Below are positions 11,937 to 45,524 of a stretch of 64,000 bases of DNA, piece after piece. The notes under the pieces were generated by a model. The model was not told the origin of the DNA and made no database searches. It saw only the letters and a program-made list of their open reading frames with translations. The DNA comes from an uncultured Candidatus Saccharibacteria bacterium (GTDB taxonomy: Bacteria; Patescibacteriota; Minisyncoccia; Phycocordibacterales; UBA9973). Position 1 is the first letter of the stretch, and the number at the start of each line of letters is the position of its first letter. The stretch lies in assembly GCA_964522195.1 (NCBI GenBank), contig CAZFSV010000001.1:44680-108679 (forward strand), read 5' to 3'. A program made the position numbers and the translations under genes.

Positions 11937-12099
11937 CACTCTAGCGGGTTAGTGCAGGCTAGGAACTTTTGTGTATCAAAAGGCTCCCAGCCATTGCGAT
12001 AGACCGAAGTCTACCCGTATAAGTTTCCCTATACGACCCGCTAGAGTGACTCTGACTGGGAGTCCTTTGATCTCTAGCGGGAGATTTGCGACCATGCCT
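11937..12099. other. GC-rich structured repeat element (13-bp inverted repeats cactctagcgggt/acccgctagagtg plus third partial copy)
   Basis: Abrupt GC-rich block in AT-rich DNA. A perfect 13-bp inverted repeat at 11937-11949/12036-12048 encloses ~85 nt with sub-hairpins (tagac-UUCG-gtcta on minus strand, cgtata...tatacg). ctctagcggg recurs at 12071-12082. Confidence 0.4.
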
Positions 12100-12528
12100 C
12101 AAATAAATAAGGTTTAGGTCTTCTATTCAATTGTTAATGAAATTATACCTTATTTTCAAAGGTCCTGCATCTTAGCTTAATCCTTGAGATTTGTGTAGTC
12201 ATTAAAAATCCATCTGTGGATAACTTTTGATTTTTTATTTACACACCTTTTTGTATTAAAACTAGGTCATCTTTCTTAAAAGAAAAATCACAAAAATTCT
12301 ATTTACACTACTGACAGAATTTCTGTGATTTTTTGTTTGCAATAAAAAATATGTGTGTATAAAATACAAATATAACTAAATTGTGAGATTTTAATATCCC
12401 TAAACTGTTTGAGTAAGATCGGTCGATGAAAAGATCAAACTCGGAAGTGGGATATTTTTATTTCAACTTCACTTAATTGAGAACTAAACTGACTACCTAA
12501 ATTGAATTAAAAGCTAATTCAAAATTTT

Positions 12529-14595: not shown

Positions 14596-17500
14596 TTACC
14601 TTCGATATTTAAGTTTACGGTTGTCAAATGCCGGTAATGTTCCTTCAAGTATATCGACAACGTACTTATTGATTTTTGGATTTTCAATAGAACCCGAATA
14701 AAAATCGAAGTCGTTCTTATTCTTTTTGTCTATGTGTACGTGGATTATCTGTTCCGCGTCTGCCACAACTGCAAGATTTGGGTTGTGGGTGACCATAATA
14801 ATTTGACGACGCTTCTTTGCTTTTTTAAGAAATGTCACAAGGATTTCGTATACACTTTTGTTATCGAGGTTATCTTCCGGTTGGTCTATGACAAGTGGTA
14901 TATCCCGACGATCAAGCATTAGATAGAAGATAAGCAGAAGACCACCCCTTTCGCCCGGCGACAATTCACTAAGGTCTTTCTCATCGACTTTCAGGTCATA
15001 CTTAGTCTCCAAGTAATCGAATCCAAAAATATAATCATATAGATCGACGGGTTCCTTGCCTTGCTTCATCTGCTTGAACACACCACGAGCCTTATTTTCG
15101 TTAGCAGGTAGACCAACTCTTTTATCAGTATCGATATTGGCCGTCACGGAGTCGAGGAAAGACATTACCATTTTCTCATTCTGCCAATTGGTTACTTCCT
15201 CAACAATTCTTTTAAGCACACTTTTACCATCCTCTGTTCCGTAAAAACTACCTTTAACCGCCTGATTAACAAATCTAAAGAATTCATCGAAAAATGTTTT
15301 GTCGAAGCGAAGACTCGCTTCTATAGAGATGTCGTAGTCGCCTAACTCTTCGCTATATTTTTCAATTTCTCCGTCGATTGATTTTTTCACCGAGTCGTAG
15401 AAGGTAGCCAACGTCACCTTCTTGGCGAAGATTTCCTTGCTGACTCTTGTCCGTTCTTCCTTGGCAGTGGTCAGTTCCGCAGGGTAAGTTGATGTAATCG
15501 CAACAAGTTCCTTCGTAAGCCAGTTAAGCGTATCCGCGACTGGGGTTGTATCATCGCCAACCAATTCTTTCAGTTGATTTTCCCACTTTTCCTTATCTTT
15601 CAGATAGGCTTGGTATTCCTGATTCGGTTTATCAAGCCGGTCAACGATTTCTTTTCTCTGTTTAGACAACAGCGCCTGTTTGCAGACTAGGCTTTTTCCC
15701 AACGCAAGTTTCTTGTCAGCATCATTCAGACCTAATGTCTCAATATCGGCTTCAGTTTTGAGGAGTTCATTTATCTCGGCGAGTCGGTCCTCATTGGTTT
15801 TGACAAAATCATCGATTTTTTTGGAATCAAACGATACTGTGACAATGTCATCGAATTTTATGTCTGCAGCCGTAAGTTGCTCTCGGTATTTAGTCTTTAA
15901 ACCCGTAATACCCATGACTTGGCGAGAGATTGCCAGTTTTATTTGTCCAAAGTCCTGAACTTTCTTTGCAACGGACGCCTGCTCCGTCTTAATTGCAGTG
16001 ATTGATGTGGCTAACGTGGTCAATTCAGTTTCTATGGGCGTAATCTCAGACACACCTCCCGTCGCAACCTCAGTGGCTTGTGCTGGTTTTGGGGCGTCTT
16101 TTGGTTTCAGCTTGTTATGGGTATCTACCTCCTCTTCCTTGATCCGCTTCTTTTCCTCAATCGACTTCTTGTAATCAGGCGCGAGTTTTCGTTCAGCGGC
16201 AACAACCTTGTTGTTTGCCTCATGCAATGAGTCCTTAGCTAATTTTATATCCTCCTCTATCTGACTTGAGAGATAGGTGATGAGTTCCTCTAAGGTCGTC
16301 TTTTCAAATCGGTCCTTTTCTTCAACGTACCCAAAAATGACCTCATTTAATTTTCCCCTGAACTCATCATCTTCTATATTCGCACAAATCTTCTCAAGAT
16401 ATTTTTGGGGTAGGTACTCGACCTTTTCAGAAAGGGTTTTGTCGACTTCTGCATCCAGAAGGATTCCGTCCGGCTCTCCCGCATGCCAATGTAATTCACC
16501 AGAAAAATTCGAAGCGCACCGCCCTTTGAGAAATTTGTCTTTATTCAAGAAGGAGAATAATTCTTCGGATCGACCGTTCGTACCGTCATACTTCTGGTTA
16601 TGACTATTGCCAAACAACCCCACTATGTCCGTGACAGCACTTTTACCACTTCCTTTGTTACCAATGATGGCAACAAGTTCGGGATTCAGGTCGATCTTTT
16701 CGTCTTTAAACCATGTGCCGTGTTTTCCGTCGTACCCTTCAATCTGGTCAATATGTAGAGTTTTTATGTACTTAGTCTGATTGGTACGCACGCGATCCAA
16801 AATGCCAGGCTCATCTCCTATGAATATTCGTTCATCAGGTTCATACGTGATGTACTTGAGACCCTCAAACGTTAGGTCCGCCTTAACCCAGGTGATGTCT
16901 CTTTCTATCACGGTCAGATTTTCGGCGTCCGTTTTTATGATCCTTTTGCCAAGCGCATTTTCAAGATCATTAAAAGAGTGAGCGTCACTACCGCATGCGA
17001 CAGGCTTGGGTACCGAACCTTCGTAACGCTCACCGAGAAAGAAATCCTTATCATCAGCACGTCCGAAAAATACTGGGCAAACATCGTCTATAGTTTTCGC
17101 GTACTCCGTGTGTCTGCCCTCATGTTGCGGCGGGCGGATTCCACCGTAACCATTTGCTACACCAAAAACTAGAAAAACATCGCGATTTCCGAATGTCTTC
17201 TTTAGTGAGTTAAGAATTGCATCACTAGTAACAATTGCCTTATCATATCCGATGCGCGCCAAGTCAGTTTGTACGCATTTAGATTTTGAACCGTCTACAT
17301 TAACATTTCTTAGCTCAATACCGCTCAGAAATCTTTCGATTTCCTCTTTTGTTGCCTCATCTGAGAAAACAATGTGAATATTTATGTGATCGTTCTCTTT
17401 ATTTTTATCTTCAAGTCTAAATTCAATATTTGGAAAAAATATTTTCTTTGAATCTGGATATTTTGTCTTAAATTTTTCAATAAAAGTGAAGTAACCATCC

Positions 17501-17688
17501 GCAGAGAAATAATCGGTGATACCAAAGGCATATACATCAGATTCTTCCAACTTTCTACAATATTCATCCCACACGTCTTTACCAGAAGAAACAGCGTACT
17601 GGTCATTTAGTTTTGTGGTTGGTGGATGAATATGAAGATCCCACTTTCTCCATACTGAACCTATTCTAAACTCGTCTTTCTGAACCAT
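14596..17688 (-). CDS. PHP-domain phosphoesterase fused to SMC/RecN-like ABC ATPase with central coiled-coil (PplA-like defence protein)
   Basis: N-terminal PHP motifs (WDLHIHPP HxH, ...ACGSDAHS). Walker A AIIGNKGSGKS. ~450-aa coiled-coil/low-complexity spacer. ABC signature LSPGERGG, Walker B VIDQPEDNLD, H-loop IIMVTHNP. 2-nt spacer to upstream res gene. Confidence 0.7.
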   Translation of the reverse strand: MVQKDEFRIGSVWRKWDLHIHPPTTKLNDQYAVSSGKDVWDEYCRKLEESDVYAFGITDYFSADGYFTFIEKFKTKYPDSKKIFFPNIEFRLEDKNKENDHINIHIVFSDEATKEEIERFLSGIELRNVNVDGSKSKCVQTDLARIGYDKAIVTSDAILNSLKKTFGNRDVFLVFGVANGYGGIRPPQHEGRHTEYAKTIDDVCPVFFGRADDKDFFLGERYEGSVPKPVACGSDAHSFNDLENALGKRIIKTDAENLTVIERDITWVKADLTFEGLKYITYEPDERIFIGDEPGILDRVRTNQTKYIKTLHIDQIEGYDGKHGTWFKDEKIDLNPELVAIIGNKGSGKSAVTDIVGLFGNSHNQKYDGTNGRSEELFSFLNKDKFLKGRCASNFSGELHWHAGEPDGILLDAEVDKTLSEKVEYLPQKYLEKICANIEDDEFRGKLNEVIFGYVEEKDRFEKTTLEELITYLSSQIEEDIKLAKDSLHEANNKVVAAERKLAPDYKKSIEEKKRIKEEEVDTHNKLKPKDAPKPAQATEVATGGVSEITPIETELTTLATSITAIKTEQASVAKKVQDFGQIKLAISRQVMGITGLKTKYREQLTAADIKFDDIVTVSFDSKKIDDFVKTNEDRLAEINELLKTEADIETLGLNDADKKLALGKSLVCKQALLSKQRKEIVDRLDKPNQEYQAYLKDKEKWENQLKELVGDDTTPVADTLNWLTKELVAITSTYPAELTTAKEERTRVSKEIFAKKVTLATFYDSVKKSIDGEIEKYSEELGDYDISIEASLRFDKTFFDEFFRFVNQAVKGSFYGTEDGKSVLKRIVEEVTNWQNEKMVMSFLDSVTANIDTDKRVGLPANENKARGVFKQMKQGKEPVDLYDYIFGFDYLETKYDLKVDEKDLSELSPGERGGLLLIFYLMLDRRDIPLVIDQPEDNLDNKSVYEILVTFLKKAKKRRQIIMVTHNPNLAVVADAEQIIHVHIDKKNKNDFDFYSGSIENPKINKYVVDILEGTLPAFDNRKLKYRR

Positions 17689-17690
17689 GA

Positions 17691-19961
17691 TTATTTCAAT
17701 TCAAAAAATTCCCATCCTTTCATCGACGAGTCGAAAGAATATTTTGCGTTTTTGTTTATCTTCCATCCATTTGGCCCATCTTGGACAGCTATACCACCGG
17801 CAAAACCTTTTTTGCCCTTTAGCCATGCTTGAAGTGCCTCGGCTTTGTACTTTGTATCGTTGCTCTCCGCAGTAATTCCGCCTTTAGTATCAACAATGTA
17901 GAGAGTGTCTTTGGTCTGTACAATCCAGTCGGGATAGAAAAGTTTTTCCTTGTTTTCATCCTGATTGTAGTAAGAGATAGAGAAGTATTCGCTTCCCGAG
18001 TCGCCGTTTTTGTACCACCACACTACGCCCCTAGATGATTCGAGGAATTTTACAAACGCTTCCTCGTTAGTTCGTCCTGCATAATCTTTTTCTATCCAAA
18101 ACGGCTCCATAGCTGACTTCTTAACAGAAAGTGCTTCGTATTGATCAGTGAAGAACAAAGCTTCGCGTGGGATTTCAATATTCTCAACGCGCTTTGCGCG
18201 TGCAGATTTTTTGTTTACTTCTTGTTCACGAACAGGTCGATATTCAAGAAGTGCATCACCAATTACCGGAGCAAGTGCACCAGATGGACTCAAGAGATCG
18301 TTTACGATGATTTTATAGGCATCAATACGCTCCGCCTTAAGCTTATTCATTAGCCAAATATTTAAAGCTGTTTTCAGCTTTCCCCACGAACGCTCAGGAG
18401 CAAATTTTCTGTTCTCGTCTGTCTGTTTTGCAATAATTTTGAAGCAGAGGAGGTTATAGAGTCGCTCGAGATCGTGTCGAGACATTTCCTGCTCATGACT
18501 TCCTCCTTCTGCAAGAAGCTCCTTAGTAAAGTTGTCGTAATCATCAATTTCTACCCCAACGATCAAGCCGTTTGTGACTTTCGGCTTCAAATCCATTTTC
18601 TTTACATCTAGTTTTTTATCCGCAACTTTCTTGAATGTTTCTTGGAATGTATCGCCAAGGTCGTTATAGTCGGCACGAGTCATAAAGACCGATTCAAGCT
18701 TGATCGGCTTTATGTTTTTCTTGCGATAGCTTCCGTTTATTGCAGGGCGGTTTTCTGTCTTTGATTTTGCATACTCGGCAAGTACCTCGTTTCGCTTGTA
18801 GTTTGTATAGAGATAACCCAAATTAAGTTCAGGGTGTGCGAAATGCACGCCAAACGGCATTCGCAAGATGCGCCCTACAGTCTGAATTGCAAAAGTAGGA
18901 TTTTTGATTTCGCGGAACATCACAAGCACGCCCGCGCGCGGACAGTCCCAGCCAGTCGCGGCGGCTTGCTTGAAAAGCAAGAACGAAACCGGAGAATTAC
19001 TCTTTTCCAAGTCTTCAAGATTTTCCTTTTCTTTAGAAAGCCATACTGCAATTTCGTTTCCTTTTACACCCTTACGCTTTAGATATTCCAAAACAATTTG
19101 CTGTTTAGTTGTACCACCTGTTTCTTTTGTTGCTTGGTCGTCATTTGGTAGCTGTATCAGTACAAGCGGATTTACTTCTGCTTTTATTTCTTTATAGAGA
19201 GAAACGAGCTCCTCGCGCTTTGAATACGCAAGCTCTAAAAGCATTTCATCTTGATCAAGTTTCTTGATTGCTTTCTGACCCAAATCTTCCTCAGTTTGAA
19301 AAACAATTTTTTCCTTAATGAGTCCCGCTTCCACAACTTCAGCTCGCTTTACCTCGATATATCCGGCAACATCAGCACGGGTAGGGATGTATTTCGGCGT
19401 AGCCGACACGCGAATAGTGATTTTGGGTTTAACAACCCCATTTATAACTTCGTCCGCAAGTTCTGTATCAGAGCCAATATGCTCCTCGTCAATAATCACG
19501 ACAATTTTTCTTCCGTCCTCGTGGGTTTCGGCGATAAAATTATCAAAAGTTAGTCCTTGTTCATTATCTCGGCGAAGCTTTCGGCTATCTTTCGTCTTAC
19601 CTTTGATTTTTTGCCAGTTTATGAAAAAGACATTGTTCTTCTTTAGCTTTCCGCGCGAAAGATCGTTAAGATCAATCAAATCAAGCTCGGATGCTCCTCC
19701 ATAGTATTCAAAAAGTTTCTTTTTACTTTGTTCGTATGATTCTTCGCTAAACGAGAACCAAACAAATGCCACATCATTTCCCTCAAAACGAGGATCGCTC
19801 ACAATATCGCGTAAAAATTGCGCAAGCATGATTGTCTTACCCGAGCCAGTAGGCGATTTAAAGACGACGGGTGTATTTTCGTTCGGTAATTTCCACAGCG
19901 AAAGAAACTCATTTTTGAGATTCGATACTGCGGTTTCTTGAAATGGTTTTAGTGCAAACAT
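17691..19961 (-). CDS. res: Type III restriction enzyme Res subunit (SF2 helicase + PD-(D/E)xK endonuclease)
   Basis: Helicase motifs I FKSPTGSGKT and II VIIDEEH; C-terminal endonuclease motif YPDWIVQTKDTLYIVDTKGG (PD...DxK). Confidence 0.75.
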   Translation of the reverse strand: MFALKPFQETAVSNLKNEFLSLWKLPNENTPVVFKSPTGSGKTIMLAQFLRDIVSDPRFEGNDVAFVWFSFSEESYEQSKKKLFEYYGGASELDLIDLNDLSRGKLKKNNVFFINWQKIKGKTKDSRKLRRDNEQGLTFDNFIAETHEDGRKIVVIIDEEHIGSDTELADEVINGVVKPKITIRVSATPKYIPTRADVAGYIEVKRAEVVEAGLIKEKIVFQTEEDLGQKAIKKLDQDEMLLELAYSKREELVSLYKEIKAEVNPLVLIQLPNDDQATKETGGTTKQQIVLEYLKRKGVKGNEIAVWLSKEKENLEDLEKSNSPVSFLLFKQAAATGWDCPRAGVLVMFREIKNPTFAIQTVGRILRMPFGVHFAHPELNLGYLYTNYKRNEVLAEYAKSKTENRPAINGSYRKKNIKPIKLESVFMTRADYNDLGDTFQETFKKVADKKLDVKKMDLKPKVTNGLIVGVEIDDYDNFTKELLAEGGSHEQEMSRHDLERLYNLLCFKIIAKQTDENRKFAPERSWGKLKTALNIWLMNKLKAERIDAYKIIVNDLLSPSGALAPVIGDALLEYRPVREQEVNKKSARAKRVENIEIPREALFFTDQYEALSVKKSAMEPFWIEKDYAGRTNEEAFVKFLESSRGVVWWYKNGDSGSEYFSISYYNQDENKEKLFYPDWIVQTKDTLYIVDTKGGITAESNDTKYKAEALQAWLKGKKGFAGGIAVQDGPNGWKINKNAKYSFDSSMKGWEFFELK

Positions 19962-19965
19962 AGTT

Positions 19966-21651
19966 TTATAGGCGATTTATTTCTTTGTATACCTCAAGGA
20001 TCGGCTCGGGAATATCCTCGACTCGGATATGTGCGGATGAATATTCACCCTTGTATTCGTTCTTGCCCCAACTGAAAATATACAGAGCGACAGGTAAACT
20101 TTTCTTTTCAAGTTTTTCAATCAATTCTGCAAGCTTTGATTTGTCCTCCTTGAAATAGATTGCTGTCATTCGTCCGCGACCTTCAAAAATCTGCCACCAT
20201 TCATTTTTTTCAACTTCATTGAGAGTATCTTCACGGACAGCAATCATTTCTCCGGCTTGATAGGTAACACGAATTTTTGCTTCGTCAGGTATCTTCTGAA
20301 GATGTTCAATCTCAACAATATCTGTTTTGTAGTATGCAAGATTTCCTCCAAGCCCTTCAATTTTTTCACCAGTTTTTAAATTTTTATAGCCACTCATTAC
20401 TCGTTTTACGCGTTCGTAAGTCACTTCCTTGCAAATATTGTTTTCATTGTTAGTGCAAAGAATAAATCTACGATGACCACCGTCCTCTTTATTTATCTCG
20501 AGTACAGCATGACCAGTAGTACCAGATCCAGCAAAAAAGTCTACAACAAGAGCGTTGCGCCTATTTTTTGTTGTGGCAATTAAACACTCTTTTGTGTTGT
20601 AAAGTGATTTCGGAAATGGGAATTTTGTATCGATTATTTGATTTACCAAGCTTGAACCATAAGTATTAGAGTTATGTTTTGAATCCACCCATACTGTTTT
20701 GTATCTGTATTGACTCTTATATCTGTTGATTACAAGTTCACCTTTATTTTCTTCACACTTTAGTTCTCCCCAAATATCCTCAACTGTTTGTCTTGCAAAT
20801 CGCCACTTTCTTTCCACACCATTTCCATCAATGGGGTAAATTTCAACATTCCCATCTTTTCTTTTCTCGTTTGCGGATTTCGGATGTATCTCATCTTGAA
20901 GAACATCGCCAAATCCAATAATTTTCTTTGTTTTAGGATCAACAATAATTGAATAGAAACAATTTCGTGCTGTGTTCCTCTTAGATTCATCGCCACCCCA
21001 GTCTCTTAATGGGGTGGGTTTAACATCTTCTCTTTCTACGCGAGAAATATATTCCTTTCCTTTCGGAAAAATGAAATATGCATATTCGTGGGTATATGAG
21101 AAATTATCTCCTTGAATTCCACCTGGATTATGAATGATGGTTACGCAGACCTTTTCATGGGTAGGAAAAATATCCTCGAGCAAGAGACCTAGTGTCTCTT
21201 GCTCGTTGTGATCAATAGCACAAATTAAAATTCCATCTTGATTAAGAAGTTCCCTTGCGAGCTTCAATCTGTGACTCATAAAAGACAACCATTTGCTATG
21301 ACGATATTCGTCTTCCTTGTCTACATAGTCGTTGTTGTATCTCCAGTTTTTCGCTCCTGTGTTGTAGGGTGGATCAATGTAAATAACATCAACCTTCTTT
21401 TTATGAGTATAAACAAGAGCTGAAAGTGCATGATAGTTATCACCCTCAATCAGAAGATTATAGATTTCATTATCTGACTTCTTAACCTTAAGGTTTTTTA
21501 TTTGTCTCAATACAGGTATATTTTTTTGACCATCTACAACGACATCTTCTGGTTTTTCCTCCCAGATTAAGCCGTACTTGCGATCTTTTTTCAGACGTCT
21601 CAGTTCTGATTTCAAATCCGCTATCTCTTTTTGTAAATCTTTTTCAGACAT
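19966..21651 (-). CDS. mod: Type III R-M Mod subunit, N6-adenine DNA methyltransferase (beta class)
   Basis: Motif IV IYIDPPYNTG upstream of motif I VVDFFAGSGTTGHA; central variable TRD; 4 nt upstream of res. Confidence 0.8.
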   Translation of the reverse strand: MSEKDLQKEIADLKSELRRLKKDRKYGLIWEEKPEDVVVDGQKNIPVLRQIKNLKVKKSDNEIYNLLIEGDNYHALSALVYTHKKKVDVIYIDPPYNTGAKNWRYNNDYVDKEDEYRHSKWLSFMSHRLKLARELLNQDGILICAIDHNEQETLGLLLEDIFPTHEKVCVTIIHNPGGIQGDNFSYTHEYAYFIFPKGKEYISRVEREDVKPTPLRDWGGDESKRNTARNCFYSIIVDPKTKKIIGFGDVLQDEIHPKSANEKRKDGNVEIYPIDGNGVERKWRFARQTVEDIWGELKCEENKGELVINRYKSQYRYKTVWVDSKHNSNTYGSSLVNQIIDTKFPFPKSLYNTKECLIATTKNRRNALVVDFFAGSGTTGHAVLEINKEDGGHRRFILCTNNENNICKEVTYERVKRVMSGYKNLKTGEKIEGLGGNLAYYKTDIVEIEHLQKIPDEAKIRVTYQAGEMIAVREDTLNEVEKNEWWQIFEGRGRMTAIYFKEDKSKLAELIEKLEKKSLPVALYIFSWGKNEYKGEYSSAHIRVEDIPEPILEVYKEINRL

Positions 21652-24865: not shown

Positions 24866-24955
24866 TGGCGGAGAGAGCGAGATTCGAACTCGCGGTCCTG
24901 TTTAAGGGACGACGGTTTAGTAAACCGTTGATTTAAACCACTCATCCATCTCTCC
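24866..24955 (-). tRNA. Type II (long variable arm) tRNA, Ser-like, apparent anticodon ACU
   Basis: GGAGAGATGGATGAGTGGTTTAAATCAACGGTTTACTAAACCGTCGTCCCTTAAACAGGACCGCGAGTTCGAATCTCGCTCTCTCCGCCA. Acceptor 7 bp, T-arm GCGAG/TTCGAAT/CTCGC, G73, encoded CCA, 3-bp D-stem typical of tRNA-Ser. Anticodon loop TTACTAA reads A34-C35-U36. Confidence 0.65.
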
Positions 24956-25021: not shown

Positions 25022-25111
25022 GGAGCCGTGGGAGAGTGGTCTAATCTACCTCTTTGCTAAAGAGGCAGGCTGTAAAAGGCCTCGAGGGTTCGAATCCCTC
25101 CGGCTCCGCCA
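25022..25111 (+). tRNA. tRNA-Ser(GCU)
   Basis: GGAGCCGTGGGAGAGTGG...CCTCT-TTGCTAA-AGAGG anticodon arm (GCU), long variable arm, T-arm AGGGTTCGAATCCCT, G73, CCA encoded. Confidence 0.85.
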
Positions 25112-38694: not shown

Positions 38695-41271
<2,577 letters not shown>

Positions 41272-41281
41272 GATATTTTGG

Positions 41282-41482
41282 CGGTATGTTCTGGACAAAA
41301 TTCGAACTTTTTTCGAAGAAAATCCAAACGATTAAAACTAATAAAATGGACTCGGCAGGGCGAAACAATTTGTCTGGGGTTTTGGATTCGCCCTGCCTCG
41401 GCTGATTTCCCGCCCGCAGGAGGGGTCTGGGGAGGAATGCGGGCGGGTTTCGGACTGGGGGTTTTCGGAAATTCGGCGGCTA
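41282..41482. repeat. 201-bp GC-rich terminal inverted repeat, copy A1
   Basis: Identical (by eye) to reverse complement of 43090..43290. Contains perfect hairpins ggcagggcgaa...ttcgccctgcc (11 bp) and cccgcccgca...tgcgggcggg (10 bp). Outer end carries tRNA-3'-end-like AGTTCGAATTTTGTCCAGAACATACCGCC. Confidence 0.85.
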
Positions 41483-41489
41483 ACACTAA

Positions 41490-42113
41490 TCAAAAATTGA
41501 CATCTTTTACAAACCAATTTTTGAATCTTTTTAGAAAACTTTTTAAACTCTTAAAACTTCTTTTTATAAATAACCAAATATTTTCAAAAACAGTTTTTTT
41601 ATTTTTATATACCAGAAAGTTTAAAAAGTTTGCAGAATTGATTTCTTTAAGTTTATCTTTTATTTCGTCTTTTTCCCAAAAAGCAGTAAAAGATATTTTC
41701 TTTATAGATTCTGAGCCAAAGTAAAATTCCAGCGAACCACTATCTTCCAATTTATCTTTCGGTATTTCAAAATATAGAATTTCCAAAGTAGTTTCTGGTG
41801 GTAATTTAAAATATTCTTTTGTATATCCATATAGATATGAACCACCACCCAAATTAGAACTTTTGATATAGAAACTACTTTGTTCATCTAATCCTGGTGC
41901 AAAATTTGTTTTTGCTATTCCTACAAAAGCAGAAAACCATACCGTATTTATGAGTGTCTTTTGATTATTTTTTAATAAGACCGAAAAACAAATTTTGTCT
42001 TTATCTTCAGGATTTCTTATAACGAAAAAATACCTCAAATCACTTTTAGTTTCCTTTTCCTTTTCTTTGTTTACATTCAAATTATTATTAACAGTAAAAA
42101 GTGTGGGGTTCAT
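41490..42113 (-). CDS. Hypothetical protein (207 aa) in IR-bounded cassette
   Basis: ORF, last gene of XRE-led minus-strand operon; no motif. Confidence 0.4.
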   Translation of the reverse strand: MNPTLFTVNNNLNVNKEKEKETKSDLRYFFVIRNPEDKDKICFSVLLKNNQKTLINTVWFSAFVGIAKTNFAPGLDEQSSFYIKSSNLGGGSYLYGYTKEYFKLPPETTLEILYFEIPKDKLEDSGSLEFYFGSESIKKISFTAFWEKDEIKDKLKEINSANFLNFLVYKNKKTVFENIWLFIKRSFKSLKSFLKRFKNWFVKDVNF

Positions 42114-42118
42114 ATTTT

Positions 42119-42772
42119 TTAAATAGTTTCTTCCACCTCTTTGTTCAATTCGTTATAGTCCAGTTTAGAAAATTCGGTAAATAACGAATTGGCTAAAATA
42201 TGGATTATTTTTTCGTCTAGAAAGACATCGTTTGCGTATTTATTACTTGAACCATCGCCAGAAAGTATACTTGCAACTTTCATCATAAATCTATTTTTTA
42301 AGGTGTTTTCAAAAAATCTTATCTTAAACTCATCCGTTGCGTTAAAGGTTTGTCTTAATCTAATTTGGAATACATCAAGGATACTATTGCCTTTATACTC
42401 AGATAATTTTTGGTGTGCTTCGGGAGTAAAATTTTCATACATTTCACGAATCATTTTTTTATGTCCCTCAAAATCTTTTTCTTTATCTTTGTGGTCAAGT
42501 AATAAGGAAACTATAAGTATCATGTGTTCATTTAAAGCATCAGAAAATATTTTCTGATCTTCTTTGTCCATGTGTTGTTTAAATTTTTCTCCAACATAAT
42601 AATGTCCAAACATCGCAGCTTCCAAAAGTAAAGTTCCAAATGCAGAAGGGTGGACATTGACATTTTTAAGAACTTTTAATTCATTTCTCCAAGAAGAAAC
42701 GACTTTTTGTGAAATATCCCCAACAAGAGTTGCGACTGTCAAAGCAAGTTTTTCGATATTTTCTTTTTCCAT
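42119..42772 (-). CDS. Hypothetical protein (217 aa) in IR-bounded cassette
   Basis: ORF 12 nt downstream of XRE gene; no motif. Confidence 0.4.
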   Translation of the reverse strand: MEKENIEKLALTVATLVGDISQKVVSSWRNELKVLKNVNVHPSAFGTLLLEAAMFGHYYVGEKFKQHMDKEDQKIFSDALNEHMILIVSLLLDHKDKEKDFEGHKKMIREMYENFTPEAHQKLSEYKGNSILDVFQIRLRQTFNATDEFKIRFFENTLKNRFMMKVASILSGDGSSNKYANDVFLDEKIIHILANSLFTEFSKLDYNELNKEVEETI

Positions 42773-42784
42773 AATATTAGTTAA

Positions 42785-42991
42785 TTATTTTAATAAATCC
42801 TCCATAGGAACGCCTAACGACTTGGCGATTTTTTGGATTGTTTGAACACTTGGTTTTGTGACAACACCACCCTCAATTTTTGTAAGAGTAGAGTATTTGA
42901 TGTCCGCTTTCTTTGCCAAGTCGTCTTGCGTCAATCCTTGTTTTGTTCGTATTCGTTTTATGTTTTGTGATATAGTTGCCATAGTATCCAA
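42785..42991 (-). CDS. XRE-family helix-turn-helix transcriptional regulator
   Basis: 68 aa; HTH_3 signature QNIKRIRTKQGLTQDDLAKKADIKYSTLTKIEGG. Confidence 0.75.
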   Translation of the reverse strand: MDTMATISQNIKRIRTKQGLTQDDLAKKADIKYSTLTKIEGGVVTKPSVQTIQKIAKSLGVPMEDLLK

Positions 42992-43089
42992 ACTTTGATA
43001 GTATTATCTTATGAGTAGATTCTTTCTTTGCTCACAAAACAATGATAGCAAAAATTATGGATTTTATCAATCTGTATTTTCTAATTTTG

Positions 43090-43290
43090 TAGCCGCCGAA
43101 TTTCCGAAAACCCCCAGTCCGAAACCCGCCCGCATTCCTCCCCAGACCCCTCCTGCGGGCGGGAAATCAGCCGAGGCAGGGCGAATCCAAAACCCCAGAC
43201 AAATTGTTTCGCCCTGCCGAGTCCATTTTATTAGTTTTAATCGTTTGGATTTTCTTCGAAAAAAGTTCGAATTTTGTCCAGAACATACCG
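43090..43290. repeat. 201-bp GC-rich terminal inverted repeat, copy A2
   Basis: Reverse complement of 41282..41482. Confidence 0.85.
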
Positions 43291-43407
43291 CAACAAATCG
43301 GAATTCAAATTTCCGCAAAAAATATGGTCGGCACGAAGTGCCGTCTGTTCTGAATTCCCCCCAAAAAATCCTGAATCTGAAAGGGTTCGCCACGCAGAGC
43401 GTGGCTC
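43287..43407. repeat. 121-bp inverted repeat, copy B1, abutting A2 at shared CCGC
   Basis: Matches reverse complement of 44821..44940; begins CCGCAACAAATCGGAATTCAAATTTCCGCAA (degenerate tRNA T-arm/3' end). Confidence 0.85.
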
Positions 43408-43428
43408 CTCGTTAGCCAATACAACAAT

Positions 43429-44973
43429 ATGAATAATCAAACTAGAAAATTTTTTATATATACTCGCAAATCTACCGACACCGAAGATCGGCAAGTTAGA
43501 AGCATTTCGGATCAACTGGCCGAATTAAAAGAATTGGCGGTAAAAGAACAAATTGAGGTTATAGATATTTTTGTGGAAAAACAAACTGCTAAAGCTCCGG
43601 GTCGGCCAGTATTTAATGAAATGCTTCTCCGTATCGAAGCAAATGAGGCAAATGGAATTTTAGCGTGGCATCCCGATAGATTGGCTAGAAATAGTGTTGA
43701 TGGTGGTAAAATAATATATTTGCTCGATACAGGGAAAATTACCGAGCTAAAGTTTCCAACTTTCTGGTGTGATACAACTCCGCAAGGTAAGTTCATGCTT
43801 TCTATTGCATTTTCACAATCCAAGTATTATGTGGACAACCTAAGTGAGAATATTAAACGAGGTCATCGTAACAAAGTGAAAGAAGGAATATGGCCTCAAA
43901 TGTCGCCGATTGGATATGTAAATGTGAAAGGTGCTGGAATTGTACCCGACGAGAATATTGCCCCTTTAATCAAGAAAATATTTGAGGCCTATGCAACTGG
44001 AAATTTCACTTTGCGACAACTTCACGATAAGTTTAATGCTCTTGGATTGAGTAGAAAGAATAGAAAGGTGCTTTCCGTTTCCAACTACCAACAAATTTTG
44101 AGAAATCCGATATTCACTGGCTTAATGAGATATGGTGGTGAAATCTATGAAGGAAAGCACAAACCGATTATCACAAAGAAACTTTTTGATTCCGTTCAAG
44201 AAGTGATGAGCCGAAAATCTAAACCGCATAGCAAAGGACTAAAGTCATTTTTGTATAGAGGATTTTTCCGTTGCGGAGAATGCGGCTGTTTCATTACTAC
44301 CGAAACACAAAAAGGTCATAACTATTTACGATGTACTAAACGGAAAAATCCTTGTGAACAAAAATATGTCCGCGAGGAACTCATCACTTCTCAAATTAAG
44401 GAAGAAATCAAAAAAGTTTCTTTACCACTCGATTGGGCAAATTGGATGATTGTCGAAAACGAAAAAGACCGACAATCAGAAAATCAATCGAGTGAGATTT
44501 TTTCTCAAAAAACAAAAGATGAAATTTCTCTTTTGGATTCAAAAGTTGAAAAGTTGATGAACTTATATTTAGAAAATGTTTTGTCTTTAGAAGAATATCG
44601 AGATTCTAAAAATAAGTTAGTTAATCAAAAACAACTTTTAAAAGAGAAATTATCAGCTTTTGAGAAAAAATCTCATAATCGGTTCGAACTTACCGAAAAT
44701 TTTCTAAAAGCTAATATTCATATCGTGGAATTGGCTAACGAGAAAACAAATGAAGAAAATCTTCATTTGTTTAAAAAAGTCGGTTCGAACTTTTTAATTA
44801 AAGATCGAACCGTACTTTTTGAGCCACGCTCTGCGTGGCGAACCCTTTCAGATTCAGGATTTTTTGGGGGGAATTCAGAACAGACGGCACTTCGTGCCGA
44901 CCATATTTTTTGCGGAAATTTGAATTCCGATTTGTTGCGGAGGGTGGGAGATTCGAACTCCCGATGCCCGTGA
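43429..44973 (+). CDS. Large serine recombinase, paralog of 22089..23366 (C-terminal ~50 codons read through repeat B2/tRNA; true C-terminus uncertain)
   Basis: YTRKSTDTEDRQ...SISDQ catalytic domain, recombinase domain, zinc ribbon CGECGC...LRCTKRKNPC, coiled coil; ~45% identical by eye to first recombinase in N-terminal 100 aa. Confidence 0.8.
   Translation: MNNQTRKFFIYTRKSTDTEDRQVRSISDQLAELKELAVKEQIEVIDIFVEKQTAKAPGRPVFNEMLLRIEANEANGILAWHPDRLARNSVDGGKIIYLLDTGKITELKFPTFWCDTTPQGKFMLSIAFSQSKYYVDNLSENIKRGHRNKVKEGIWPQMSPIGYVNVKGAGIVPDENIAPLIKKIFEAYATGNFTLRQLHDKFNALGLSRKNRKVLSVSNYQQILRNPIFTGLMRYGGEIYEGKHKPIITKKLFDSVQEVMSRKSKPHSKGLKSFLYRGFFRCGECGCFITTETQKGHNYLRCTKRKNPCEQKYVREELITSQIKEEIKKVSLPLDWANWMIVENEKDRQSENQSSEIFSQKTKDEISLLDSKVEKLMNLYLENVLSLEEYRDSKNKLVNQKQLLKEKLSAFEKKSHNRFELTENFLKANIHIVELANEKTNEENLHLFKKVGSNFLIKDRTVLFEPRSAWRTLSDSGFFGGNSEQTALRADHIFCGNLNSDLLRRVGDSNSRCP
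44821..44940. repeat. 121-bp inverted repeat, copy B2, ending at tRNA-Ser(GGA) 3' end
   Basis: Reverse complement of 43287..43407; terminal ...TTGTTGCGG overlaps tRNA discriminator. Confidence 0.85.
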
Positions 44974-45024
44974 AGACATACAGACTTTCCAGGTCTGCGC
45001 ACTAGACCACTATGCGAACCCTCC
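44938..45024 (-). tRNA. tRNA-Ser(GGA), CCA not encoded
   Basis: GGAGGGTTCGCATAGTGGTCTAGTGCGCAGACCTGGAAAGTCTG...CGGGAGTTCGAATCTCCCACCCTCCG. Anticodon loop CTGGAAA (GGA), long variable arm, 3-bp D-stem, G73. Confidence 0.8.
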
Positions 45025-45270
45025 AAAATAATTTTTTAATTTGTTTTTTAAAACTTCTCTACCGTGACCAGTTTTGAAATATTTTTCTGCTTCTTGTGCA
45101 TCTTTTTTGTTTAAATAAGCTTCATAAAATATAAGATCAAAATCCCCATTTCTTGAAGTAAAATCAGAATTATGAGATTTGTGTTCTTTAATCCTTCTTT
45201 TTAAATCACTGGTAAATCCATAATACAGTTTACCATTTTTATGAAATTTTAATACATAAAAATAATACAT
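45010..45270 (-). CDS. GIY-YIG nuclease superfamily protein (UPF0213/YhbQ-like); start taken at MYYFYVLKF, not the TTG of the 45010..45330 ORF
   Basis: YYFYVLKF...NGKLYYGFTSDLKRRIKEH = GIY-YIG motif; last 4 codons plus stop lie inside tRNA-Ser(GGA) 5' end. Confidence 0.7.
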   Translation of the reverse strand: MYYFYVLKFHKNGKLYYGFTSDLKRRIKEHKSHNSDFTSRNGDFDLIFYEAYLNKKDAQEAEKYFKTGHGREVLKNKLKNYFGGFA

Positions 45271-45374
45271 ATTTGACCACTTCCGCCTCTTCGGCGGATG
45301 CGCCGTTGAGGCGCAATGCGAACCCTCCAATATATTAAATTTACACTATTTTAATAAAAAAGAAAGAAATGGTA

Positions 45375-45524
45375 TAATATAGGTATGGATCCGGTAGTAG
45401 ATTTTCAAATCATTACTGGGTAATAGTTTAGAGTAAAATATAAGTTTAGTTTTATTATTAATTTTAATTATATTTTCAAATAAAGTTTAAAAACAATTTG
45501 AAAATTCACTACAGGATGGAAACT
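45375..45524. repeat. Right copy of ~140-bp long-range inverted repeat (promoter + first 9 codons MKIHYRMET)
   Basis: Reverse complement matches 8553..8694. Coordinates approximate (+/-10 nt): one printed line (45481) holds fewer bases than its label implies. Confidence 0.75.

Follow-up and report, generated by a model that had tools for sequence, protein, structure and literature searches.

A compact element probably integrated by its own large serine recombinase at a tRNA-Ser gene, with relatives across Patescibacteria

The window analysed in this work, a 64,000-nucleotide stretch of contig CAZFSV010000001.1 from an uncultured Candidatus Saccharibacteria bacterium (assembly GCA_964522195.1), contains between ligA and a tRNA-Ser(GGA) gene a block built from two pairs of inverted repeats, one enclosing three small genes and the other a large serine recombinase (LSR) gene (Table 1). 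A preliminary description, made from the sequence alone, had presented the first pair as identical terminal inverted repeats (TIRs) of about 50% GC with two hairpins each, and this proved correct: the arms, named here A' (outer copy) and A (internal copy), were fully complementary over about 204-205 nt (the inverted-repeat tool gave 207 nt at 99%, overrunning the true end by 6 nt) and had a GC content of 0.51, compared with 0.31 for the whole window and 0.29 for the segment between the arms. Each arm carried both hairpins, GGCAGGGCGAA/TTCGCCCTGCC (H2) and CCCGCCCGCA/TGCGGGCGGG (H1), of 11 and 10 bp respectively, and its outer end read ...AGTTCGAATTTTGTCCAGAACATACCGC. The three minus-strand genes between the arms and the position of the cassette between ligA and an LSR gene, the open reading frame (ORF) of 514 codons to its right, were also as described. 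Two features had gone unmentioned, the tRNA-Ser(GGA) gene and a second perfect inverted repeat of 120 nt (B and B') bracketing the recombinase. B overlapped the end of A by a 4-nt core, its first four bases being CCGC, and the internal A|B joint (..ACATACCG|CAACAAATCGG..), located between the divergent XRE and LSR genes, has the appearance of an intact attP-like unit. Along the tRNA strand the order was tRNA-Ser, B, recombinase (antisense), B inverted, A inverted, the XRE, 217- and 207-amino-acid genes, A and the end of ligA.

Table 1. Features of the element and its flanks (positions in the window).
Feature	Position	Strand	Remarks
ligA, host flank on the attR side	39256..41271	+	Stop codon 6-7 nt from the original tRNA 3' end
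Left junction core GCGG (putative attR crossover region)	41281..41284	.	Host ...GATATTTTG G|CGG TATGTTC... element; compared with the L120 empty site and the internal A|B joint
Repeat A' (outer copy)	41281..41485	-	100% complementary to 43087-43291
Cargo gene 3, 207 aa	41490..42113	-	Predicted disordered N-terminus, beta-sandwich and long C-terminal helix
Cargo gene 2, 217 aa	42119..42772	-	All-helical predicted fold (bundle)
XRE-family HTH regulator, 68 aa	42785..42991	-	HTH_3, E 9e-17; first gene of the cargo operon
Promoter-like site TTGATA-17-TATCAT (TG-extended)	43042..43070	-	Upstream of XRE in the unique 95-nt A-XRE spacer (42992-43086); consensus match only
Repeat A (internal copy)	43087..43291	+	Perfect complement of 41281-41485
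Repeat B (internal copy)	43288..43407	+	Perfect complement of 44821-44940; ends 21 nt before the LSR start codon
LSR ORF, 514 codons	43429..44973	+	Resolvase, Recombinase and Zn_ribbon_recom domains
Repeat B' (outer copy)	44821..44940	-	120 nt, 100% complementary to 43288-43407; joined to the tRNA (putative attL); doubles as LSR 3' coding sequence
tRNA-Ser(GGA), integration target (putative attB B arm)	44937..45024	-	ARAGORN and Rfam

The recombinase had the three domains that characterize an LSR (PF00239, E 7e-21; PF07508, 1.5e-14; PF13408, 1.5e-08), matched the integrase family phrog_95 (E 3e-75) and showed, in translation, a YTRKST motif near its N-terminus. The closest LigA relative (P0002, contig L120; 93% identity, same pilus-ligA synteny) carried an empty site, ...GATGATAGACTAA GATATTTGG|CGGAGGGTGGGAGATTCGAACTCCC..., consisting of the ligA stop codon (TAA), six bases and then a tRNA-Ser(GGA) gene identical to that of the window and with an encoded CCA; at the tRNA joint it read ...GATATTTGG|CGGAGGGTGGG... 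(CGGAGGG..). In the window the left joint was ..GATATTTTGG|CGGTATGTTC.. and the right joint ..ATTTGTTG|CGGAGGGTGGG.., with 3,656 bp between flanks that are contiguous in L120 and only GCGG common to both joints. The tRNA gene of the window was intact up to the discriminator base, and the CCA encoded at the empty site was replaced by CAA. A relative at 77% likewise had ligA followed by tRNA-Ser without the element. Since the empty site lacked both the cassette and the recombinase, and the joints lay only at the outer ends of A' and B', the two entered as one block: A'-[XRE+217+207]-A.B-[LSR]-B' is a single insertion at the tRNA G|CCA with a 4-bp GCGG core, a discrete insertion whose joints share a short core only, as expected of an integrative element. 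The mobility put forward in the preliminary description was therefore right as regards mobile DNA tied to the neighbouring serine recombinase, but not as regards an independent TIR unit.

We consider it highly probable that the segment 41282-44936 is a single 3.66-kb integrative element, inserted by the LSR into tRNA-Ser and belonging to a family of the Patescibacteria (candidate phyla radiation, CPR); it was placed among the LSR integrative elements because of the enzyme, the joints sharing only the core, the empty site and a 5-bp motif shift described below. The genuine end of the tRNA (..CCCTCCG|C) and the tRNA-like end of A (..ACATACCG|C) led into the same B sequence. In the mechanism proposed, the LSR, as the putative catalyst, would recombine attP (the A|B joint, ..ACCG|C..) with attB (the 3' end of tRNA-Ser(GGA), ..CCCTCCG|CCA..). 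The unintegrated element would contain two inverted copies of an A.B region of ~325 bp, separating a cargo arc (XRE and variable genes) from a recombinase arc. Integration would split one of these copies, whose B half would stay by the tRNA (attL) and whose A half would come to adjoin the host sequence beyond the tRNA 3' end, in this case the end of ligA (attR); the second copy would remain whole in the middle of the element. The cargo would come to lie between inverted A copies and the recombinase between inverted B copies because one A.B copy is split and the other intact; the left "TIR" would be the attR half of the attachment region, and the right "TIR" a part of the intact, inverted second A.B copy. 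B and the outer arm of A would also encode the C-terminal tail of the LSR, so that the gene spans attP.

The anatomy of A was compared in copies aligned across recombinase subfamilies. The inner end (~35 nt) was variable. The central core (~110 nt), in the order H1 (CCCGCCCGCA-loop-TGCGGGCGGG), linker, H2 (GGCAGGGCGAA-loop-TTCGCCCTGCC) and GAGTCC, with CCCCAGAC present in the loops of both hairpins, was near-invariant in every subfamily, the invariance of H2 being biased by its use as the scan pattern. The outer arm (~45 nt) was of three types, which tracked recombinase subfamily and tRNA target, and conservation ended precisely at ..CACCG|C (about 90 copies). The outer arm contained a T-loop-like 7-mer, whose end was separated from the crossover by 19 nt in 68 of the 70 copies aligned; in every adjoining tRNA the genuine T-loop ended 14 nt before it. 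The test of this 5-bp offset covered the P and B arms. In P' and B' no clear symmetry was seen, and a search by eye for P/P' symmetry around the crossover gave none that was convincing. For the Listeria (LI) integrase, the zinc-ribbon motif in attP is shifted 5 bp outward with respect to attB (PMC3783163). As the T-loop mimic lies 5 bp further out and matches this published rule, the "degenerate" tRNA-like end of A reported in the preliminary description is best read as tRNA-derived mimicry, the P arm of attP imitating the B arm of attB, and the outer ~45 nt of A are best explained as a recombinase-specific P arm of the attachment site.

The repeat was not confined to this locus. The 11-bp hairpin with a variable loop was found in at least 117 stretches of the species-representative genome collection, nearly all from metagenome-assembled genomes (MAGs) of Patescibacteria belonging to many lineages (Saccharibacteria, Nomura-, Kaiser-, Morani-, Uhr-, Wolfe-, Jackson-, Peri-, Doudna- and Azambacteria, and Paceibacterota), and nhmmer detected at least 153 copies of A in the hairpin-scan loci listed, many of them at contig ends. 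The family is largely restricted to CPR bacteria. Viral contigs scanned with the same pattern gave a single match, and the idea of a phage feature was rejected on this ground. Thirty-six pairs of A copies lay 1.5-5.5 kb apart, the left copy always reversed and the right copy always forward, as in the window. LSR homologues abutted A in more than 25 loci; in more than 20, the homologue was ~80% identical to the enzyme of the window and was itself bracketed by B/B'. The full order A'-cargo-A.B-LSR-B'-tRNA-Ser was also present in L011, L019 and L045, A.B-LSR-B'-tRNA-Ser in L030, L037 and L040, and the mirror image tRNA-Ser-B-LSR-B'-A' in L050 (in these last four the second A copy lay outside the DNA fetched); in about 12 further loci the architecture was partially visible. 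The tRNA-Ser genes at these elements had the anticodons GGA, TGA and GCT, and more distant recombinases (41-52% identical), with B variants of their own, were located at tRNA-Ala and tRNA-Gln. Orientation was fixed: XRE was the first cargo gene by the internal A arm and divergent from the LSR in all 19 loci in which the LSR side was known, and the LSR was convergent with the tRNA in 12 of 12. A recurrent motif, CAnnAAGAAnnTAGTATCGGnnTGACCCGA, was observed beyond the attR joint (first ~35-75 nt past the outer A arm) in nine unrelated loci (L019, L022, L029, L074, L098, L100, L105, L110 and L113), for which Rfam returned no family.

Identity between the arms, from which recent mobility or recombination had been deduced for the window alone, was a family trait. 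A equalled A' at 100% in 14 of 25 loci and the B pair was identical in 6 of 10, whereas copies from different loci were only ~86% (A) and ~92% (B) alike, pointing to maintenance by gene conversion or recent arrival. Such identity is not obligatory, since the B copies within L030, L040 and L127 were only 83-93% identical.

Of the 36 A pairs, 33 contained XRE, which in each case read inward and lay 66-201 nt from one of the arms; the XRE protein of the window also matched the PADLOC HTH_VI model and the 'Control_protein' model of restriction-modification (R-M) systems. Pfam, PHROGs, PADLOC and NCBIfam gave no match for the cassette's two other proteins, whose predicted folds had only generic structural neighbours. 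Thirteen homologues of the 217-amino-acid protein were found, all from uncultured samples (one from a Candidatus Paceibacterota MAG) and nameless or 'hypothetical', two of whose genomic contexts, when looked up, were mobile-element-like; the 207-amino-acid protein had only 9 representatives in 1.8 billion clusters. The same slot was occupied in sister elements by defence-type and by ordinary metabolic genes: restriction enzymes like AccI, HincII and EcoRI with their methylases, a D12 methylase, a ThsB TIR-like protein, an AAA_15/21 ATPase, an LD-carboxypeptidase with a phosphoesterase, a methyltransferase with a Vut_1 transporter, an aminotransferase and a DHH phosphoesterase. In L003, L029 and L078 a small XRE/C-protein gene headed an operon with restriction endonuclease and methyltransferase genes. 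As XRE was kept even beside metabolic cargo, it seems to be a component of the element itself and not of the cargo; it is most likely the regulator of the element and, in the relatives bearing R-M genes, a controller protein as well.

The recombinase gene itself extended across the crossover. In the window its conserved core reached to 44820, the C-terminal tail came from B' (44821-44940) and the last 11 codons from the antisense strand of the tRNA gene. All 12 elements that adjoined a tRNA, drawn from three subfamilies, behaved likewise: the frame spanned B' (35-44 codons) and stopped only 3-22 codons into the antisense tRNA. The peptide encoded by B' kept a motif across subfamilies (EPRxAWRILAE, KNPWRILAET and KTPWNFLAET; general form EPRxAWRxL), whereas the B DNA of these subfamilies had no detectable similarity. 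Where B' was joined to an A' arm, the frame ran on for 17-20 codons to a conserved stop, giving the consensus C[LV]L[DN]KVR[NT][YF]F.QNP..; the tails encoded by A' were of a main type (RCLLDKVRNYFEQNPND), that of the window's arm (RYVLDKIRTFFEENPND), a second type (LCLLNKIRTFFQQNPDSEF) and a third type (WCLFEKVRTHFAENPEN). A search of the LSR family returned at least 7,490 proteins at E <= 1e-60, and of the 120 closest cluster representatives among the matches listed, 68 ended in a D[SL]N tail, which corresponds to the antisense of a T-loop, and 17 in the A'-encoded peptide. Because the LSR reading frame spans attP, integration would exchange the conserved last 17 residues of the enzyme for tRNA-antisense residues, an exchange that may have a functional or regulatory role. 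Opposite the 5' end of the recombinase gene, a 92-codon ORF (43237-43515, minus strand) ended in the same tail peptide (..EPRSAWRTL...RYVLDKIRTFFEENPND) because it crosses the internal B.A copy, and is probably a side effect of the duplication.

A metagenome scan for the LSR 3' end followed by B'-A' gave two short contigs, L126 and L127. L127 contained A.B-recombinase (516 aa, full tail)-B'.A' and a convergent C5-methylase-like ORF, and its B'.A' joint was genuine, since single-nucleotide polymorphisms distinguished its two B copies; in L126 (1.2 kb) XRE lay by the copy following the LSR 3' end, the opposite cargo orientation. The same LSR-B'.A' joint was also present in the tandem arrays L129 (1-8071; two different elements in series) and L130 (3164-7623; third A' copy only 84% like the other two), with a similar arrangement in L007 (534-4486). 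Their order was cargo-A.B-LSR-B'.A'-cargo-A.B-LSR, and the upstream LSR kept its full-length tail because its B' was joined to the A' of the next element. L126 and L127 are therefore no proof of a free circle, since tandem arrays give the same joint; a circular intermediate would nevertheless be part of the mechanism proposed.

Several observations weigh against integration by this route as a complete account of the family. The two contigs with an LSR-B'.A' joint, L126 and L127, could be pieces of arrays and not of a free circular form. The architecture is not uniform across the family: L085 (2438-4855) and L102 (4330-7183) were A'-XRE/cargo-A cassettes whose flanks, as far as fetched, contained neither a recombinase nor B, and in L128 (5787-7575 of a 257-kb contig) an LSR lay in a 195-nt inverted repeat (95% identical) formed by B and only the outer 65 nt of A, without hairpin core, XRE, cargo or tRNA. 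Two identical attP copies predict at least two integration isomers and only one was seen, so that one must further assume either selection or an LSR inactivated by its truncation. No candidate for a recombination directionality factor was recognised among the three small genes, such factors sharing no signature. Finally, synonymous and non-synonymous changes in the A'-encoded tail stood at only about 5:11 (partly a hand count), and the suggestive signs of coding constraint on this tail are confounded with constraint on the DNA site itself.

Among the alternatives, the one that fared best takes A as primarily a structured nucleic acid (a non-coding RNA, a 5'/3' UTR pairing or a single-stranded DNA signal) with attachment as a secondary role, close to the structured-RNA-bearing repeat of the preliminary description. 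The core of ~110 nt, nearly the same across LSR subfamilies only 41-52% identical, with its two GC hairpins of 10-11 bp sharing CCCCAGAC in their loops, is what such a role would lead one to expect; A.B also folded more stably than its shuffles (z = -4.2), and compensatory changes were found in H1 in two lineages (L104 and L060). The two B copies of L127 (70-174 and 1574-1679, flipped) differed by compensatory hairpin changes as well (GTCGCGCC/GGCGCGAC vs. GTCGGCAC/GTGCCGAC), which suggests selection for a B stem. However, ARAGORN and Rfam found only the true tRNA-Ser in 41200-45400 and nothing in A or B at the gathering score or even at E < 5, the RNAalifold covariation term was about 0 for 70 copies of A (whose stems were invariant, H2 being the search pattern and its invariance to that extent biased), and L128 dispensed with the core altogether. 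The structured-RNA claim thus found no backing in Rfam or in covariation, and a primarily structural role is unlikely.

The second alternative, also raised in the preliminary description, is a phase-variable segment whose 1.6-kb interior is flipped between the A copies by the recombinase or by homologous recombination, switching expression. Long perfect inverted repeats adjoining a serine recombinase, the within-locus identity of the arms, as recombining arms would maintain, and the opposite cargo orientation of L126 are all features of such a switch, but L126 is only 1.2 kb long and may derive from an array or be mis-threaded. The same orientation in 19 of 19 independent loci, together with the 12 of 12 in which the LSR converged on the tRNA, argues against free inversion; the arms end exactly at the integration crossover shared with the tRNA, and the promoter and operon lie wholly within the segment, so that a flip changes nothing obvious. 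Nor is the enzyme of the Hin/Gin type: those invertases are small, with a C-terminal HTH, sites of ~26 bp and both orientations present, whereas the LSR is an integrase-type protein of 464 or more amino acids and the repeats are 120-205 bp long. An invertible cassette is very unlikely.

A further alternative separates the cassette from the recombinase: A'-cargo-A would be an autonomous or trans-mobilised TIR element (like a miniature inverted-repeat transposable element, MITE, or a composite transposon) that landed beside an unrelated recombinase element. It would account for L085 and L102, with both A arms and no LSR in the flanks fetched, for cargo highly variable between arms of identical type, and for the many A copies at contig ends, as in repeated mobile DNA. 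Nevertheless, the empty site lacked cassette and LSR together, with joints only at the outer ends of A' and B'; neither a target-site duplication around 41281 and 43291 (41275-41280 vs. 43292-43297) nor a transposase ORF was present, as a TIR transposon, insertion sequence or MITE would have; LSR homologues abut A in more than 25 loci, and the type of outer arm in A changes with the LSR subfamily. This explanation is highly improbable. An integron cassette, which would call for an adjacent attC site, attI and an IntI tyrosine integrase, does not fit the locus either, the sole recombinase being a serine enzyme and the cassette having its own regulator and promoter-like site.

That the repeats arose in assembly, for instance through a chimeric or collapsed contig, a suspicion raised in metagenome-derived sequence by their perfect identity and by the back-to-back placement of both pairs, is refuted by the recurrence of the same layout in unrelated MAGs, dozens in number and produced by many different studies and assemblers, in some loci with non-identical arms, and by the independent Logan assembly of SRR13355620, where, as expected of a true inverted repeat, the interior formed a separate unitig of 1,667 nt (1,607 nt plus 30 nt of repeat at each end) and the ligA contig stopped 30 nt into the repeat; its probability is practically nil.

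If the locus is an LSR integrative element, the second A.B copy and the hairpin core could be given roles in a tentative extension, which we regard as possible though rather less than probable, whereby the element governs its own recombinase without a separate directionality factor. As attP lies inside the recombinase gene, production of the full-length LSR (..C-L-L-D-K-V-R-N-Y-F-E-Q-N-P-N-D) would require a junction of B' with an A' arm, as in the free form or in the upstream member of an array. Integration would truncate and replace the tail and place the gene antisense to a strongly transcribed tRNA, and the two together would turn the LSR off or alter its direction, which would account for the single isomer. 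The second, inverted and intact attP copy might be kept as an internal regulatory or decoy site, and the two-hairpin core, with CCCCAGAC in both loops, could act as a single-strand signal read by the host for priming, uptake or processing; occurring once per orientation on either strand, it would work whichever strand enters naturally competent cells. A folded single-strand dumbbell rebuilding attP as the integration substrate was rejected by reasoning only, because strand exchange would leave hairpin-capped chromosome ends.

The element resembles LSR prophages and integrative elements (phiC31, Bxb1, A118/LI and TP901-1; streptococcal integrative mobilizable elements) in the architecture of the enzyme, insertion at a core of a few bp, an integrase gene adjoining the attachment site and an attP motif 5 bp further out than that of attB (PMC3783163). 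It differs from them in its tiny size (3.7 kb, coding for one regulator, two cargo proteins and the integrase), in having two inverted attP regions of ~325 bp and an attP within the integrase frame, in targeting a tRNA 3' end, and in showing no evident directionality factor. The tycheposons of Prochlorococcus are reportedly likewise compact elements inserting at tRNA genes, with variable cargo cassettes and tandem arrays at one tRNA; unlike the present element, they are said to leave direct partial-tRNA repeats, and reportedly have neither the double inverted-repeat layout nor a fixed XRE or an invariant hairpin core. By structural analogy only, the yeast 2-micron plasmid and plastid inverted repeats also split a circle in two arcs, with a site-specific recombinase in one; however, FLP is a tyrosine recombinase and the 2-micron repeats amplify copy number through inversion, whereas orientation was fixed in the integrated copies of the present element, which has no replication gene. 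In cluster G/P mycobacteriophages such as BPs, attP lies inside the repressor gene and immunity is integration-dependent (PMC4557955). This is the nearest precedent for the tail exchange proposed, attP lying in both cases inside a gene whose product has its C-terminus altered by integration; in BPs, with a tyrosine integrase, the gene is that of the repressor, while here it would be the serine recombinase's own tail, known from sequence alone, that changes. Type II R-M cassettes controlled by C proteins are matched by L003, L029 and L078, but the cargo of the window contains no recognisable R-M genes and XRE is kept with metabolic cargo. The element is set apart by its inverted pair of attP regions, by an integrase gene that extends across attP, by the constant presence of XRE, by the unvarying hairpin core and by the near-confinement of the family to CPR bacteria. 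Literature searches aimed at it found no description, subscription-only papers being outside the coverage.

Other observations were made in the window. The B hairpin CGGCACGAAGTGCCG (43329-43343 / 44885-44899) scored as a bidirectional terminator-like site. Directly upstream of the tRNA-Ser lay a GIY-YIG nuclease gene (45010-45330, minus strand; 86 aa; PF01541, 6e-15), ahead of which the 5' end of the tRNA was repeated over 13 nt (GGAGGGTTCGCAT, at -304) and two GC hairpins occurred; the gene was absent in the relatives L121 and L122 (the contig of L120 stops at the tRNA 5' end), and homologues adjoined the element or the tRNA in L011 and L014. It may be a separate homing-type insertion. Two divergent tRNA-Ser genes (24866-24955, minus strand, and 25022-25111, plus strand), one with the unusual anticodon ACT and the other with GCT according to ARAGORN, are both potential secondary targets for the recombinase family; the cassette of L102 was located between a tRNA-Ser(GCT) and a tRNA-Ser with the anticodon ACT. 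A LOOT RNA (RF03000) match was found at 11998-12120 (minus strand; 76.6 bits, E 1e-12), and the region ~14850-20100, with a GC content of 0.46-0.59 against 31% in the window and no Rfam match at gathering thresholds, may be foreign or unusually constrained DNA.

Much of bacterial diversity belongs to the Patescibacteria (CPR), whose genomes are tiny; these bacteria are genetically hard to manipulate, and little is known of their gene exchange. Elements of this family seem to serve as a common and compact vehicle by which R-M, defence and metabolic cassettes are delivered to tRNA genes in many CPR lineages, and, since many copies of A are at contig ends, the family may partly cause the breaks in CPR metagenome assemblies. 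Its layout, with two inverted attP regions, a gene spanning attP and a hairpin core of 110 nt, poses testable questions on the directionality of serine integrases, and its ready-made attP/attB pairs (tRNA-Ser, tRNA-Ala and tRNA-Gln ends) could be tried as integration vectors for CPR bacteria.

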